Made by a program: the position numbers. A stretch of DNA of 64,000 bases from Candidatus Micrarchaeia archaeon. GTDB lineage: Archaea > Micrarchaeota > Micrarchaeia > Anstonellales > J096. The DNA is taken from the NCBI GenBank assembly GCA_041500865.1, contig JBGQMY010000003.1, positions 1 through 64,000 of the forward strand. The letters run 5' to 3'. This document shows positions 21,001-27,000 of this stretch, piece by piece (position 1 is the first letter of the stretch; each line of letters opens with the position of its first letter).

Positions 21001-24000
21001 AGTATTTTTCAAATACCTGGAAGGCGGGGATACTAAGATAACTGCGACTTATCCTGCAGGAAGGATAGGCACGACCGCGGAGAACCTGCTTGAGGCGGCA
21101 GACGGCGAGAAGCTAGAATGGGGCACGCTATACCCGGAGTTCGAGAAAGTCGCAAGGCAGGAAGGCTTTCCGGACGTTGCAAGCTCGTTCAAGGAGATAG
21201 CCGAAGTCGAGATGCACCACGAGCAGAGGTACAGGGCGCTGCTGGACAACATCAAGACCGGCGCGGTGTTCAAGAGGAAAGGGGACGCCGTGAGGTGGAA
21301 GTGCAGGAACTGCGGCTACATCCACGAAGGGCCCGAGGCGCCAAACCAGTGCCCGGCATGCAAGCATCCGCAGGCGTATTACGAGCTGCTGTGCGACAAC
21401 TTTTAGATTTTTCAGTTTAGCAGGAACACTGCCGCGTTCAGCAGCGCGGCAAAAGACACCCAAGCAATGTAAGGAGCCAGCAAAAGCCCGGCCGTCTTGG
21501 ACACCTTATTGAATTCATTTATCGTCATTGCGATTGAAGCCCAAAGCGCGATGATGCACAAAAGGCCCAGAAGCGGGGAATGCATGCCGAAGAAAAGGAC
21601 AGACCATAAGACGTTAAGGATTAGCTGGACTGCAAATGCCGCCATGGCGCTTTTGGTTTCACGCGTTTTCCGTTCCATGAAAACCAGGTATGCGGCAATG
21701 CCCATCAGGATATATAGGATTGTCCAAACAGGCCCGAAGACCCAATTTGGAGGCGAGAAGAACGGCTTGTTGAGGCCGGCATACCAGCCTGTTATTGAGG
21801 GAAACGTGAAGATTGGGCCGATTGCGCCTGCAATTAAGCAAACAACAACAAAAGCAACGGCGATTGCGGTGTCCCTTGCGTCCATGGCTGGCTTTCTGCT
21901 CAGCATTTTAAAATACCTTCCAAACACCATTTGGTACGCAGGGGTTGCCAAGCCCGGTCAAAGGCGCGGGACTTAAGATCCCGTCTCTCAGGAGTTCGTG
22001 GGTTCAAATCCCACCCCCTGCATTCGCACCGGCTCATGCAGTGGCTGGTTTGGAGCTTCGGCTCCAAATCCCTCCAACCGTCCGCGGTTGAAGGTCCCAC
22101 CCCCTGCATAATTTTTTAAACTGGTTAAACCGAAAGATTCACTGGGGATGCAATGGAACTCACGCTGATGCTTTTTTTGATTGCTGTAATCGTAATCAAC
22201 GCCATCCCCGCATTCATGCCGCCAACGTGGGTATTGCTGGCGTATTATTCCAGGGGCAGCGGCGTGGACCTGCTGGTGCTTGCCGTGCTTGGCGCAGTTT
22301 GCTCGACAATCGGCAGAATCGTGCTTGCCAAGTGGTCCGGCCCGGTCACGTACCGCTTCTTCAGCAAGTCCATGGCCAGAAACGCAGAATTCGCGCATGA
22401 AGAAGCGGCGAAGCATCCGGGCGCGGAATTCGTAAGCTCCTTTGTCTATGCCCTCAGCCCATTGCCGAGCAATACGGTATTCATCGTTACAGGCGCTGCA
22501 AATCTCAGGCTTCTTCCGATTGCAGGGGGCTTTTTTGCAGGGCGCGTAATCTCGTATTACCTGATTATGAATTTGGTGCGCTTTTCAATGTACCAGCTTG
22601 GTAGGATGTTTTCATTCTACGACCCTACCGCATGGGTTCTGGACTTTCTCGGGATTGCGCTCTCCTTGCTGGTCTTCACAATAGACTGGAGGGGCCTGCT
22701 CCAGAGAAAACCCGGAAAAAAAGCTTGAGGCTTTTTGACAGGGAAGTTAAGCCGGCAAAGGGCGTCATTACGGCAAACAGCCACAAGGAACTTGTTGAGG
22801 CGCTTGAAAAATCAGGAATTGGACTCAATCAGCGAAACCAGGTTCCGGATTCCGTTCATCTTCTTGCCCGTGCGGTAGAAGACGTCAAGGTTCCGCCTGA
22901 GCCTCCTTGCCTTCTCTATGGCCATTGAAAGGCTGTACTCGTTGAGGCTGGACTGCTCCAGGTATTCGCCGATGCCAAGCTCTTTCACCATCCTGCAGTT
23001 GTTCACCCTCTCCGGATACCTTGGATTTGGGATGCAGACCATGGGCTTGCGCGCCATTATGCTTTCCATTATGCCGGTGTGGCCGCCGTGCAGGACGTTG
23101 AGCATGCTGCCGCCTACGAACTCACGGACGTTTTCAACGTATATCAGGTTGCCCTCGCGCGGCCTGCTGCCGCGCATGATGAAATTGTAGTCCTTCATCC
23201 GCTTCGCGACTTCAGCTATGCCGCTTTCGGTGTTGAAGCCGGCGCCCAGGTTCAGCACGATTGAGCTGTTCTTCACCTTCCTTATGCTTGAAAGGTCCAC
23301 CATCGGGCCAAGGAACTCCGCCGTCTTCGGAAGGTTGTGGTGGATGTTTTTCGCGCATATGGCATAAGGCAAGGGAAAATCCGGAACTGCAACGATGTTG
23401 GAGCTTGAGAACGCGGACGAAAAGAACTTGTCCAGCCCCTTGACAAGCGCCTTCTGCATGCCTGAAAAGAACACGGAGTTGTCCGTGTTGTTTGAAACGA
23501 AGATGACCTTCTTTTTCAGCATGGTTGACAGCATCAGGCCGAACATTGAGGAGTCAATGACAACCAAGTCCGCGCCCTCAATCGCCTTTTTCGCTGTGTC
23601 AATCGTTTTCGGGTCAAAGCGCTTGACGATTTCAGCTATGGAGGCTGTCACGTCCAGGCCCTCCTGGCCGAGCTTTATGTCATACGGCTGCTCGACGTCA
23701 ATAACGTCCACATGGCCCTCCTTCAGGTATTCGGAGCCCTGGCCGTAGCTTAGCACGCTGCCCCCTGTCCTGCTTATGACAGGCAGCATCCTCGCGGCAT
23801 GGCCGTAGCCGAGGCCTTCCACTATAAATGAAACGTTCTTCGGCATGAGAAATTGACCCGTAGCCATGTCTGCCTGGTGTTTTAAAAAGAATTGCGGCAT
23901 CGGATTAGGTTTTTAAATGCTTTACCCAAAATGTCCCTTAGCTGGGCTTGTGGGCTCGTAGCTCAGTCGGTAGAGCGACGGTCTTATATGGCGCGTTCTA

Positions 24001-27000
24001 GCACAAACCTAAGTTAGCCGTAGGTCCTGGGTTCAAGTCCCAGCGGGCCCACTTTTTCAATTTTGTGGTTGCAATGCCGTGCATAAAGGTGGAAAAACTG
24101 AAGGCGGAGAAGGCCATAAGGAGCCTGGCGGCAAAGGGCCTGATTGACATGTCCTTCTCAGTCATGCATGACAAAAGCCACGTTTATATTCCTGTAAAGG
24201 AAAAAATCAGAGGATACGCATACTCAATGAAAAGGCCAAGGCCAAGAAAAGCGGGGCCGCGCAACCTTTCAGAGGCGCTTGGATTGCAGGGCGTGAAAGC
24301 CAAGAACGCGCTGTCCTCGTTTGACCTGCTTGGCAACATTGCGGTCGTGGAGCTGCCGAAAGGCATGGACGCAAAAAAGGCAGCAAAGGCCATCATGTCA
24401 ATCCATAAGAACATAGAGGCAGTTTATGCAAAAAAAGGCGGCATGGAAGGGAAATACCGGGTAAGGAAGTTCAGGCTGATTGGGGGAAAGGGGAAGAGCG
24501 TCGCAAGATACAGGGAAAACGGCGTGGCAATGGAGTTTGACGTAAAAAAGGTGTTCTTCTCGCCAAGGCTTTCAACAGAAAGGAAAAGGGTCGCCGGCCT
24601 TGTAGGAGAAAACGAGAGCGTGCTCGTGCTTTTTGCGGGCGTCGGGCCTTTTGCGCTATGCGTGGCAAAGGAAAGGCCAGCAGCGAAAGTGATAGGCATA
24701 GAGCTTAACGCAGAGGCTGTCAAATGGTTCAAAAGGAACATCAAACTGAACAAGCTGGGCAACGTTGAAGCCGTGCTGGGCGACGTGAAAAAGGAGCTTG
24801 CCAAAAGGGAATATGCGGGATGGGCGGACAGGATTGTCATGCCGCTGCCCAAGGATGCGGAGCGCTTCCTGAAGGATGCAGGAAAGGCGTCAAAAAAGGG
24901 GACAATAATCCATTTCTACACGTTCGTGGACGCGAAAAGGCCGCTGGAGCACGCAAAGGAAAAGATAAAGGCCAATCTGGAAAGGCCTTTCAGGATAATC
25001 CAGGCCAGGAAGGTCAGGGACTACTCGCCAAAAACCGTGCAGGTCGTGGCTGATATAGAGATCCTGGGCTAGTCTGGCACTGGCACCTTTTGGCTGGCAT
25101 GGGGCTGGGGTGTGCGTTCAAAATGGCAGCAAACGCAAGGTTAGAAGGAAAGCGTCACGCCCTTCTTCTTTTCAACCGTTCCCTCGCATCCCATGTCCTC
25201 CAGGTCCTTCATGTCCTTGAGCGTCATGCTTTCTATTGAAATTCTCATCATGGTCACCAATGAATGCTCCGGATTCCTTGTTTATAAAGAAGGGCAGACC
25301 TCATTGCCAGAAGCCCAGGATGATGGGCGCTATGCCGAAATGATACTATTGTTCTTTATTGCCGTCGACCTCTGGATTGCGCAGCGTGGTGTTTCCGTCA
25401 AGCCCGTCTATCTCGACGCTTGCCCTGGTAGACATCCTGGCGCTCACAAAGTCACCCAGCCGCTTCAGCGGCGCCTTTTCGGCGGCTTTGAACATCTCCT
25501 GCTGTATTGCCCCGTCCACCCAGGCGTTTATCTGCTCCCAATCGCCCTTGTCAATTGCCCTGGCGATGGCAGGGGCCTCCTTTTTCACATCGTTGATATA
25601 GCGGCACTTGGCTTCTAATTCAATGACCTTGAACCTTATGAAGGCGAGCCTCTTGTTGACTTCGCCCTCCTCCCACCCCATTATGGACTTTATCTTGTCG
25701 TTCACTGCATTCATTATCTTCCTTATTCTCCTGTTGACGAAGAAGTCCATGAGCTTCCCTGTGGTGAAAAGGACCGTGGAAACGACGAACGCCCCTGTCC
25801 CGAGGACCATGGCCACATTGCTGCTTCCGGCCACTTTCTCAACTACGTCCCTCAGGTTTGACGCGAATGCTGCGGTCGTCACGCCAAGCGAGGCGGATAT
25901 TGCGCTTAGGTACGTCATTATCCTTGGCCAGGACTTTTTTGAAAGGAATTCGTTGGCATAGGCTATGTCCTTTGACTGCTGTTTCTTAAGCACGTCTATC
26001 TCGCAGTCGGCGCTTTCCCTTATGTCTTTTATAGTGTAAAGCTCGCTCATTATCATTGAGTATACCGTTGAGACAAACTTGAAGTCCTTGAGCGCATTGT
26101 ATCCCATGCCGATCAGTTCGTGGTTTATCGTCTCAAGCCCGCAAATCCTCGCGTTTATCTCCTTTAGCGCGTTTGGTATGCTGTCGCAGTTGAACACCTG
26201 GTGGGCTTCTGCCATTATGTTGGATATGAACCACGGCGCATCGTACTTGTCCTTTGCTATTATTGAATTTAATATGATTTTCAGCTTTGTGTCATCGTCT
26301 ATGAGTTTACTTATGACCTGGTTTTCCTCGCACTTGGTGTAAACGCTGAGAAGCACGTCATTGGCATTTTTCTGGAAAACGCTGCGCCTGTCCTTTGCGC
26401 TGAACTTTCTGGTGTACTTTAGCCTTCTGGGCTTTTCCTGAGGGCCCTGGTTTTCTGCCATTTGCGCCACCTGTGATATATTGTGGTCAATAGGGTATTT
26501 AAATGGAGACTATCCGACGGAAAAAGCCCTTTGCCTAAGGCGAAATCCTTGTCCTGTCCCTTGGGAACAGCATGGCCTCCCTTATGTTAGGGAGGTTGAG
26601 CGCCTTCATAGTCAGCCTTTCAAGGCCAAGGCTCCAGCCTGCATGCGGCGGCGCCCCATAGCGGAATGAATCAATGTAGAACCCAAAATCCGCAGGCTCA
26701 AGGCCCCTTTTCTTTAGCTGCGTTTCAAGCATGGCAGGCACGTGAATCCTCTGCGCGCCGCTGCTTATCTCCAGGCCCTTGTACATTAGGTCAAACGACT
26801 TGCAGATTTCCGGGTTGTCCTCTTTGGGCATTGAGTAGAACGCCCTTATCGCTGTCGGGAACTCGCTTATGACATATGCGTCCTCGTTGAGTATCTCGAA
26901 TATCCTCTTCTCGTGCTCCTTTGAGAAGTCCTCGCCCCATTTGATTTTAACGTTATTTTCATTGAGCAGGTCTATCGTCTCTGTGTAGGTATACTCCTTG

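Follow-up and report, generated by a model that had tools for sequence, protein, structure and literature searches.

An intron-bearing tRNA-Ile(UAU) gene as the probable AUA reader of a Micrarchaeota archaeon in which TiaS was not found

The DNA analyzed here, which we call the window, comprises the first 64,000 nucleotides of contig JBGQMY010000003.1 from a Micrarchaeota (DPANN) archaeon. Positions 23952-24051 on its plus strand very probably constitute a functional gene for an AUA-reading tRNA-Ile(UAU) that stands in for tRNA-Ile2(CAU) and TiaS. The canonical tRNA-Ile2(CAU)-agmatidine-TiaS system likewise ensures that AUA is read as isoleucine, but we found neither its tRNA nor its enzyme in this genome. 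The name tRNA-Ile3(UAU) for such tRNAs comes from the tRNAscan-SE 2.0 paper, as given in its available text.

The tRNA-Ile(UAU) gene and its intron

The pre-tRNA at 23952-24051(+) scored 62.4 bits with the Rfam tRNA model (RF00005), against a gathering score of 29. ARAGORN reported tRNA-Ile(tat) i(39,27) at 23952-24052 when introns were allowed and missed the gene without the intron mode. When the sequence was read by hand, base 24052 proved to lie beyond the discriminator, and the gene ends at 24051. CCA is not encoded. The features of the locus are as follows:

23910..23918, plus strand: candidate archaeal TATA box, A/T-rich TTTTTAAAT, picked by eye
23952..23988, plus strand: 5' exon of tRNA-Ile(UAU) (sequence; Rfam, 62.4 bits; ARAGORN with introns; 18-nt arm pattern at 23971-23988)
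23989..24015, plus strand: 27-nt intron at the canonical position 37/38, with a bulge-helix-bulge (BHB) motif (read by hand; pairing script; loop of intron-less relatives)
24016..24051, plus strand: 3' exon of tRNA-Ile(UAU) (sequence; Rfam; comparison with tRNA-Ile(GAU))
24053..24064, plus strand: candidate archaeal oligo-T terminator, TTTTT then TTTT, picked by eye

The 5' exon holds the 5' strand of the acceptor stem, the D arm, the 5' strand of the anticodon stem, and loop positions C32-A37. Its 3' terminus reads C32 U33 U34 A35 U36 A37, with the anticodon T34 A35 T36 at 23985-23987. The 3' exon supplies A38, the 3' strand of the anticodon stem, the variable loop, the T arm, the 3' strand of the acceptor stem, and discriminator A73. 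A U31.G39 wobble pair closes the anticodon stem. The TTTTTAAAT box, which by eye is a candidate archaeal TATA box, lies approximately 35-40 nt upstream of the mature 5' end, and the T runs directly 3' of the gene may serve as an oligo-T terminator.

The exon-intron junctions form a BHB motif, in which TAAG (intron bases 22-25) base-pairs with C32-A35 at all four positions, both by hand and by script. The resulting 4-bp helix lies between two 3-nt bulges (U36 A37 i1 and i26 i27 A38), and the splice sites fall inside these bulges, at position 37/38. The inner helix h' is short, with G2:C21 and G3:C20 paired by hand. Since this motif fixes the splice sites, the anticodon can be assigned as UAU at positions 34-36. 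We place the splice at 37/38, one base to the left of the ARAGORN cut, with a predicted mature loop of CUUAUAA; the identical loop is found in intron-less relatives. The genome-wide survey's note had described a gene with a 27-nt intron and anticodon UAU at this place, and the Rfam score, the intron-aware ARAGORN prediction, and the BHB motif all bear this description out.

We compared the intron with those of related genes. An intron at 37/38 interrupts 40 of 42 distinct UAU arms, and 27 of those 40 pair with C32-A35 at all four positions (26 of the 39 other arms by script, when this gene is set aside). Of 192 high-quality genomes of the phylum, 32 have intron-less UAU genes; thus, the intron is dispensable for the AUA solution in the phylum. 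The genome encodes two splicing-endonuclease homologs of 347 and 148 aa (PF01974, 73 and 57 bits, respectively) and an RtcB ligase (463 bits). We infer that the pre-tRNA-Ile(UAU) is cleaved and ligated in this organism: the splicing endonuclease would cut it, RtcB would join the exons, and the spliced tRNA would receive CCA.

The gene has an acceptor stem, discriminator, and T stem identical to those of tRNA-Ile(GAU) at G000:C8:23258-23331(-); at 81% identity, that tRNA is its closest match among the tRNAs of the genome. The acceptor stem had already been noted as common to the two tRNAs, and the identity includes the discriminator. These likenesses suggest that tRNA-Ile(UAU) is charged with isoleucine by a putative IleRS of the archaeal/eukaryote type. 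In a weak check, on a single protein, of whether ATA positions behave like isoleucine positions, AspRS was aligned with PDB 3nel. Sixteen ATA positions fell opposite isoleucine (four), leucine (five), valine (two), methionine (one), and other residues (four), and 14 ATG positions fell opposite methionine (two), isoleucine (five), leucine (one), and other residues (six).

Reading of AUA and rejection of AUG

Codons were counted in 945 non-overlapping ORFs of the genome (ATA 11,603, ATC 5,084, ATT 3,832, ATG 9,185; GC3 0.66). ATA is the commonest isoleucine codon, with 57% of isoleucine codons and 38 per 1000, and it makes up >50% of isoleucine codons in 63% of 755 genes. The survey's note had given 59% and 41 per 1000, and its ranking of AUA stands. 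We propose that AUA is read through a U34:A pair, which would replace the agmatidine-CAU used in most archaea. One tRNA gene would then cover ~38 codons per 1000.

A tRNA-Ile with U34 or cnm5U34 also binds AUG, according to the available text of PMC8879553 and, in part, of PMC3895270, and faithful decoding therefore requires some additional feature. AUG may be protected by competition from tRNA-Met(CAU), by some property of the anticodon stem (for instance the conserved U31.G39) or of the tRNA body, or by the ribosome. The genome encodes a full-length Elp3 with ELP3_N, radical SAM, Radical_SAM_C, and GNAT domains. Elp3 normally acts on U34. Because the full-length protein is present, we lean, with roughly even confidence, toward an Elp3-dependent 5-substituted uridine at U34.

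Modification enzymes tend to be lost in small-genome lineages, and we counted this tendency in favor of a U34 that is unmodified, with AUG misreading blocked by the ribosome and by competition from tRNA-Met. Such a tRNA is described in the available text of Taniguchi et al. (2013; PMC3575796). The tilS-less bacteria, Mycoplasma mobile among them, have lost the C34-modifying enzyme, read AUA with UAU, and face the same AUG-misreading problem. The M. mobile tRNA-Ile2(UAU) is unmodified at U34 by mass spectrometry, and the organism's own ribosome rejects AUG (PMC3575796). However, that tRNA is bacterial, intron-less, and served by a bacterial-type IleRS (Arg865), and this solution is not directly transferable because the IleRS here is presumed to be of the archaeal/eukaryotic type (PMC3575796). 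The presence of a full-length Elp3, normally a U34 enzyme, also argues against an unmodified U34, which we consider possible but somewhat unlikely.

In eukaryotes, the formation of psi-A-psi requires both the intron and Pus1. A similar arrangement here would retain the intron as a guide for pseudouridylation of U34 and U36, and the resulting psi-A-psi would read AUA and not AUG. Eukaryotic cytosolic tRNA-Ile(UAU) has the UAU anticodon, the 37/38 intron, and an IleRS of eukaryote/archaeal type (presumed here) in common with our gene, and the available texts of PMC6000648 and PMC8879553 describe psi-A-psi in use in eukaryotes. Introns at 37/38 are also found in tRNA-Ile(UAU) of all eight Woesearchaeota-, Pacearchaeota-, and Iainarchaeum-labeled genomes examined, and are described for the genes of Korarchaeum cryptofilum (PMC6000648) and ARMAN-2 (PMC3239211). 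Pairing between the intron and the anticodon loop is not special, because any 37/38 BHB intron must pair there. A search of this genome for pseudouridine synthases, limited to the model for the TruA/Pus1 family (PF01416), gave no hit at E<=0.01, and 13 of 14 controls matched. We thus found neither the TruA-family Pus1 synthase nor the obligatory intron of the eukaryotic system. Because no TruA/Pus1-family gene was found and some members of the phylum do without the intron, a Pus1-type pseudouridine at U34 is unlikely, and we regard the eukaryote-like arrangement as a whole as very improbable.

CAU tRNAs and TiaS

ARAGORN identified 44 tRNAs in the genome, and a whole-genome search with the Rfam model found 43, all within the ARAGORN list. 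Only two of these tRNAs carry CAU:

C19 14404-14478: initiator-type CAU tRNA (ARAGORN; A1:U72, three G:C pairs in the anticodon stem)
12005..12140, minus strand: sole elongator-type CAU tRNA (acceptor begins GCC; 61-nt intron at 37/38)

We considered 12005..12140 as a tRNA-Ile2 and read it as tRNA-Met; its acceptor starts GCC. The rerun thus agrees with the survey's note on 44 tRNAs and on one initiator and one elongator with CAU, and Rfam adds none. A third CAU tRNA was not found by ARAGORN and Rfam in this 92%-complete genome. ARAGORN also did not find tRNA-Val(CAC) and tRNA-Ser(GGA), so some tRNAs are unassembled or were missed by detection. A pattern search for an Ile-type 5' half with CAU gave no match in 192 genomes of the phylum, a result of limited reach because GAU was found in only 28 of the matches listed from these genomes.

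TiaS was sought with models of two of its domains. The kinase domain (TCKD, PF22641) had no match in this genome at E<=10, and four of four archaeal controls matched. This second model supports the absence claimed in the survey's note from PF08489 (FLD) alone, for which we reproduced a single sub-threshold match of 17 bits. The 617-aa ORF with that match was rejected as TiaS; it has no other TiaS feature. The components of the agmatidine system (TCKD, FLD, and a CAU tRNA with an Ile-type body) were thus not found in this genome. Across the phylum, only one of 401 genomes had a PF22641 match above the cut-off, and 188 of the remainder are at least 90% complete. The single matching ORF covers only profile positions 3-60 of 156; PF08489 finds nothing in the genome that encodes it, and this genome also carries a UAU arm. 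This ORF is a doubtful TiaS, and the earlier claim of phylum-wide absence holds. It is highly improbable that TiaS and tRNA-Ile2(CAU) lie in the unassembled 8% and that tRNA-Ile(UAU) is merely a redundant second AUA reader: the incomplete genome with two expected tRNAs missing and the bacteria with both tilS and a TAT gene (available text of PMC3575796) speak for this arrangement, but the kinase domain was not over cut-off in 400 of the 401 genomes, the Ile-type CAU tRNA was found in none of the 192, and the lone TCKD match is incomplete, with no FLD domain.

Distribution, precedents, and significance

An Ile-type pattern with UAU or GAU matched in 134 of 192 genomes of the phylum; among the 150 matches listed, 122 had UAU and 28 had GAU. 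The 18-nt UAU arm itself is present in 206 of 401 genomes, in line with the survey's observation that it recurs among relatives, and UAU arms occur in most lineages of the phylum. G077, G002, G018, G012, and G013 gave no pattern match, yet inspection revealed that their UAU genes have different D loops or additional introns. No UAU arm was found with three patterns in G046, G076, and G007 (two families). Nor was TiaS found in a second DPANN phylum (151 genomes), and TiaS-less UAU decoding is not peculiar to the Micrarchaeota. Within the samples covered, TiaS is missing from whole DPANN phyla, and AUA is read there with UAU.

The combination of AUA reading by UAU, a 37/38 intron, and no TiaS is already published for the first genome of the phylum, ARMAN-2 (Candidatus Micrarchaeum acidiphilum). 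According to the available text of Fujishima et al. (2011; PMC3239211), ARMAN-2 has a tRNA-Ile(UAU) with a 37/38 intron in a strict hBHBh' motif and neither tRNA-Ile(CAU) nor TiaS. In vitro, the organism's own endonuclease cleaves this pre-tRNA, and pre-tRNA-Ile(UAU) also occurs in ARMAN-4 and -5. The gene described here shares with ARMAN-2 the phylum, the UAU anticodon, the 37/38 intron with its motif, and a genome in which neither tRNA-Ile(CAU) nor TiaS was found, but it comes from another genome and family, and its intron has 27 nt, compared to 25 nt in ARMAN-2. AUA is the majority isoleucine codon here at GC3 0.66, and there are two endonuclease homologs of 347 and 148 aa. With this solution in print for a member of the phylum since 2011, the gene is ordinary for its lineage. 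On its own it changes nothing, and its value is as a data point in a broader picture; the available text of PMC3239211 gives no phylum-wide count.

In the available texts of PMC8450103 and PMC6000648, tRNA-Ile3(UAU) replaces tRNA-Ile2(CAU) in both Nanoarchaeum equitans and K. cryptofilum, and the K. cryptofilum gene is intron-bearing and a near copy of the organism's own tRNA-Ile(GAU). These organisms belong to other phyla, and the papers rate them as rare exceptions at the level of single species (2 of 167 genomes); here, by contrast, the solution extends over whole phyla. Prokaryotes are reviewed as generally avoiding UAU since AUG misreading would follow (available text of PMC8879553). A full-text literature search did not find a picture of whole DPANN phyla that lack TiaS and read AUA with UAU in print. 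Our additions to the published picture are the negative search for TiaS in a second phylum, the dispensable intron, and a genome with no TruA/Pus1-family gene found but a full Elp3.

A broader proposition is that UAU decoding is the rule in whole DPANN phyla and possibly ancestral instead of the product of repeated loss, with heavy use of AUA and with AUG rejected by none of the three described ways, namely agmatidine or lysidine, Pus1-made psi-A-psi, and (here "not demonstrably") the ribosome solution of M. mobile. An Elp3-dependent U34 derivative, combined with the almost invariant U31.G39 pair that closes the anticodon stem, would be its candidate for AUG rejection. We think it doubtful that this proposition holds in full. 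Because they use AUA very often, these organisms are natural test cases for the accuracy of a U34 tRNA-Ile, and they are relevant to the question of an ancestral origin of UAU decoding, which a LUCA model proposes (available text of PMC3575796).

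The tRNA-Ile(UAU) gene and its intron

The Rfam tRNA model (gathering score 29) matched C3 23952-24051(+) with 62.4 bits. ARAGORN in intron mode called the locus as tRNA-Ile(tat) with a 27-nt intron (C3 23952-24052), and a default ARAGORN run did not call the gene at 23952. We read the exons and intron by hand from the sequence, and by the same reading found no CCA encoded at the 3' end.

23952-23988, + strand: 5' exon, with loop end C32 U33 U34 A35 U36 A37
23989-24015, + strand: intron, 27 bases
24016-24051, + strand: 3' exon, A38 first and discriminator A73 last
35-40 nt upstream of the gene: A/T-rich box
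Directly 3' of the gene: T runs
24065-25072, + strand: Trm5/TYW2-family tRNA methyltransferase gene (146 bits), starting 13 nt after the tRNA gene

Bases C32-A35 pair with intron bases 22-25 (TAAG), leaving two 3-nt bulges that consist of U36, A37 and intron base i1 on one side and i26, i27 and A38 on the other. With this canonical archaeal bulge-helix-bulge (BHB) geometry the splice can only lie at 37/38; ARAGORN had cut one base further right. The predicted mature loop, CUUAUAA, is identical in intron-less relatives. The A/T-rich box and the T runs, both picked out by eye only, fit a candidate archaeal promoter and terminator. The 13 sequence runs that cover 23000-25000 are DNA contigs, with no RNA run among them.

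Intron segment CGTTCTA (23994-24000) is complementary to TAGAGCG in the D arm (23971-23977), with one G.U pair. The minimum-free-energy fold pairs the two segments, and the intron segment is conserved across the order Anstonellales. The complementarity could reflect a second way of folding the pre-tRNA, or nothing more than common descent.

The nearest of the 43 other tRNAs in this genome (G000) is tRNA-Ile(GAU) (C8 23258-23331), at 81% identity; the two do not differ in acceptor stem, discriminator or T stem. ARAGORN counts 44 tRNAs in all; the whole-genome Rfam search counts 43 and found nothing outside ARAGORN's list. Two of these tRNAs carry a CAU anticodon:

C19 14404-14478: initiator-type CAU tRNA, with A1:U72 and an anticodon stem that has three G:C pairs at its foot
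C3 12005-12140, - strand: second CAU tRNA, with an acceptor stem beginning GCC and a 61-nt intron at 37/38

The second must be the elongator tRNA-Met because its acceptor stem differs from those of the Ile tRNAs. Its intron is more than twice as long as that of tRNA-Ile(UAU). The genome-wide survey's note had claimed an intron-bearing tRNA-Ile(UAU) at C3 23952, an acceptor stem shared with tRNA-Ile(GAU), and only two CAU tRNAs, one initiator and one elongator Met. Rfam, intron-mode ARAGORN and the BHB geometry bear out the first claim, the identity with tRNA-Ile(GAU) takes in the T stem and discriminator too, and neither ARAGORN nor Rfam gives a third CAU tRNA. Neither tRNA-Val(CAC) nor tRNA-Ser(GGA) was matched in G000 (92% complete) by either method, so the tRNA set is not quite complete; the genome may really lack these two, or they may lie in unassembled sequence or be masked by introns.

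We rejected a functional link between the tRNA gene and the Trm5/TYW2-family gene, as their adjacency is not kept in 47 relatives' loci and is probably a coincidence. The upstream glycosyltransferase gene does not recur beside tRNA-Ile(UAU) in the 47 loci either. Elsewhere in the window, a match to the Rfam RT-16 RNA (19626-19777(-), 62.4 bits; gathering score 50) is followed immediately, on the same strand, by a 367-aa reverse transcriptase ORF (18403-19506(-); Pfam RVT_1, 63 bits). The pair forms some type of retroelement in this Micrarchaeota genome. An adjoining 303-aa ORF (19804-20715(-)) has no Pfam match.

AUA use and the absence of TiaS

We counted codons in 945 non-overlapping ORFs (304,658 codons) and obtained 11,603 ATA, 5,084 ATC, 3,832 ATT and 9,185 ATG. 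At 38 per 1000 codons, ATA thus accounts for 57% of the Ile codons and is commoner than ATG, which upholds the survey's claim that AUA is the leading Ile codon and more frequent than AUG. The genome, with a GC3 of 0.66, avoids other codons that end in A (family shares: CTA 4%, TTA 4%, AGA 9%, GTA 13%), so the preference is specific to ATA. In 63% of the 755 genes with at least 10 Ile codons each, more than half of these codons are ATA. In crude stop-to-stop frames the ATA share is 0.46, against 0.31-0.37 in sampled relatives; AUA is common in all sampled genomes and particularly in this one. An alignment of AspRS to PDB 3nel, meant to check that ATA stands for Ile, offered too few positions to tell Ile from Met. 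AUA is likewise the leading Ile codon in several archaea that have TiaS, the agmatidine enzyme for tRNA-Ile2(CAU). High AUA use per se is therefore not unusual among Archaea.

The model PF08489 for the ferredoxin-like domain of TiaS gave one sub-threshold match in G000 (17 bits against a cut-off of 21), in a 617-aa ORF with no other TiaS feature. We added a second model, PF22641 for the kinase domain (TCKD), beyond the one that the survey had used. It gave zero matches in G000 even at E<=10, versus matches in 4/4 archaeal control genomes. Among 401 sampled Micrarchaeota genomes, it scored over cut-off in one (G335) and weakly in a second. The G335 match, in a 352-aa ORF, covers only profile positions 3-60 of 156; this genome has no PF08489 match and does have a UAU anticodon arm, and we rejected the ORF as TiaS. 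With no kinase-domain match in G000 and one partial match over cut-off in 401 genomes, the claim that TiaS is missing from the genome and the phylum holds.

UAU genes in Micrarchaeota and other DPANN archaea

An 18-nt sequence pattern for UAU arms, which undercounts them and whose reversed control matched about 18 genomes, was found in 206 of 401 Micrarchaeota genomes, or in 99 of 188 when only those with a completeness of 90% or more are counted. A pattern that joins a 5' half of Ile type to CAU matched none of 192 genomes at least 90% complete; with UAU or GAU in place of CAU it matched 134. One genome flagged unpublished is included in the 206 (G197) and one in the 134 (G029). The 150 rows listed for the UAU/GAU pattern comprise 122 UAU and 28 GAU. 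This low GAU yield indicates that the 5'-half pattern is far from exhaustive, so the CAU zero is supportive, not decisive.

BLAST with the window's pre-tRNA on five pattern-negative genomes recovered UAU genes in three. The G077 gene differs in its D loop and has another intron in the T loop, the G002 gene is intron-less, and in the G018 gene an additional intron separates the D arm from the anticodon stem. BLAST found none in G012 or G046, and the UAU gene was not among 36 Rfam tRNA matches in G012. A 3'-anchored pattern revealed a UAU gene with two introns in each of G012 and G013, the extra intron lying inside the anticodon stem. Pattern searches matched no UAU arm in G046, G076 or G007. 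ARAGORN intron calls were unreliable on the relatives, where several UAU genes were missed or labelled Ser(tga), Ala or Lys, and arms were instead read directly and by a purpose-written script.

The intron lies at 37/38 in 40 of 42 distinct UAU arms examined. In 27 of these 40 introns, the four bases two positions before the 3' splice site (TAAG, TAGG, TGGG or TGAG) pair 4/4 with C32-A35. Another 10 pair 3/4 by the script, which put the 3' splice site wrongly in 3 of the 40 arms (L018, L021, L028). Intron-less UAU arms occur in 32 of 192 high-quality genomes, only in two families of another order (20/53 and 12/33); the 37/38 intron is not obligatory in the phylum.

Within the order, the genes of many relatives contain a further intron in the T arm, and in some the 5' side is interrupted. 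These extra introns agree with the numerous non-canonical introns that PMC3239211 reports for ARMAN-2. Genes with up to three introns (loci L012-L033, L034, L043, L211 and L212) are mislabelled or missed by standard tRNA finders; in relatives' tRNA-Ile(UAU), intron sites fall at 37/38, in the T arm, at the junction of D arm and anticodon stem, and inside the anticodon stem. Four tRNA loci in G012 (L202, L205, L206, L207) share a repeat of about 50 nt that begins immediately 3' of the T arm and includes G5 and C5 runs; one of the loci has two copies. Possible identities are a family of T-loop introns, leaders of split tRNAs or a mobile insertion.

We also scanned all species genomes with a pattern, which gave at least 120 loci, mostly in bacteria, that serve as examples and not as a distribution. 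Among the matches listed, most were bacterial tRNA-Ile(UAU) genes without introns. Archaeal titles among the 80 matches listed included at least six Woesearchaeota and at least one each of Pacearchaeota, Iainarchaeum and Micrarchaeota; one listed match labelled 'archaeon' looks bacterial. All eight Woese-, Pace- and Iainarchaeal UAU genes among the matches listed have the 37/38 intron. The TiaS kinase domain was over cut-off in none of five of those genomes, and in none of 151 genomes from the phylum of one Woesearchaeota-labelled genome. From these results we conclude that UAU without TiaS is a DPANN-wide habit and not peculiar to Micrarchaeota.

Processing, decoding and precedents

The pre-tRNA would be spliced, given CCA and charged by IleRS. 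G000 encodes two very unequal splicing-endonuclease homologues, of 347 aa (C21 5224-6267(-)) and 148 aa (C5 5423-5869(-)); the longer one may be of the three-unit epsilon2 type described for ARMAN-2. An RtcB ligase is also encoded. Its match (L213, G000:C1:57069-59729(+)) is split within one 933-aa open frame: a gap of about 1.3 kb separates the part matching profile positions 1-50 from that matching 45-426, pointing to an intein or some other sizeable insertion.

The spliced tRNA would read AUA through a U34:A pair. A full-length Elp3 is encoded in G000, and we lean toward an Elp3-dependent 5-substituted U34. The next candidate is an unmodified U34, as described for the UAU tRNA-Ile of M. mobile in PMC3575796. 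A Pus1-type psi-A-psi anticodon is unlikely; no TruA/Pus1-family pseudouridine synthase was found in G000 with PF01416 at E<=0.01, and one is present in 13 of 14 controls.

A tRNA-Ile with U34 or cnm5U34 also binds AUG, according to PMC8879553. Decoding accuracy must therefore come from elsewhere. One further study reportedly likewise saw AUG binding by tRNA-Ile with either base. Rejection of AUG may come from competition with tRNA-Met, from the tRNA body or from the ribosome. Nearly all of the 42 UAU arms examined have U31.G39 as the closing pair of the anticodon stem, a candidate for such a tRNA-body feature.

The observation is confirmed and the survey's interpretation supported; the phenomenon is already described for Micrarchaeota. 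According to Fujishima et al. 2011 (PMC3239211), ARMAN-2, -4 and -5 have tRNA-Ile(UAU) and neither tRNA-Ile(CAU) nor TiaS homologues, and the ARMAN-2 pre-tRNA-Ile(UAU), whose 25-nt intron sits at 37/38 in a strict hBHBh' motif, was an in-vitro splicing substrate. Published archaeal UAU cases also include N. equitans and K. cryptofilum (PMC6000648, PMC8450103). In the full-text literature, outside subscription journals and supplements, we found no paper with a phylum-wide picture of UAU without TiaS. The finding is partly new, and only in the extent of this decoding across the phylum and superphylum and in the question of how AUG is discriminated.
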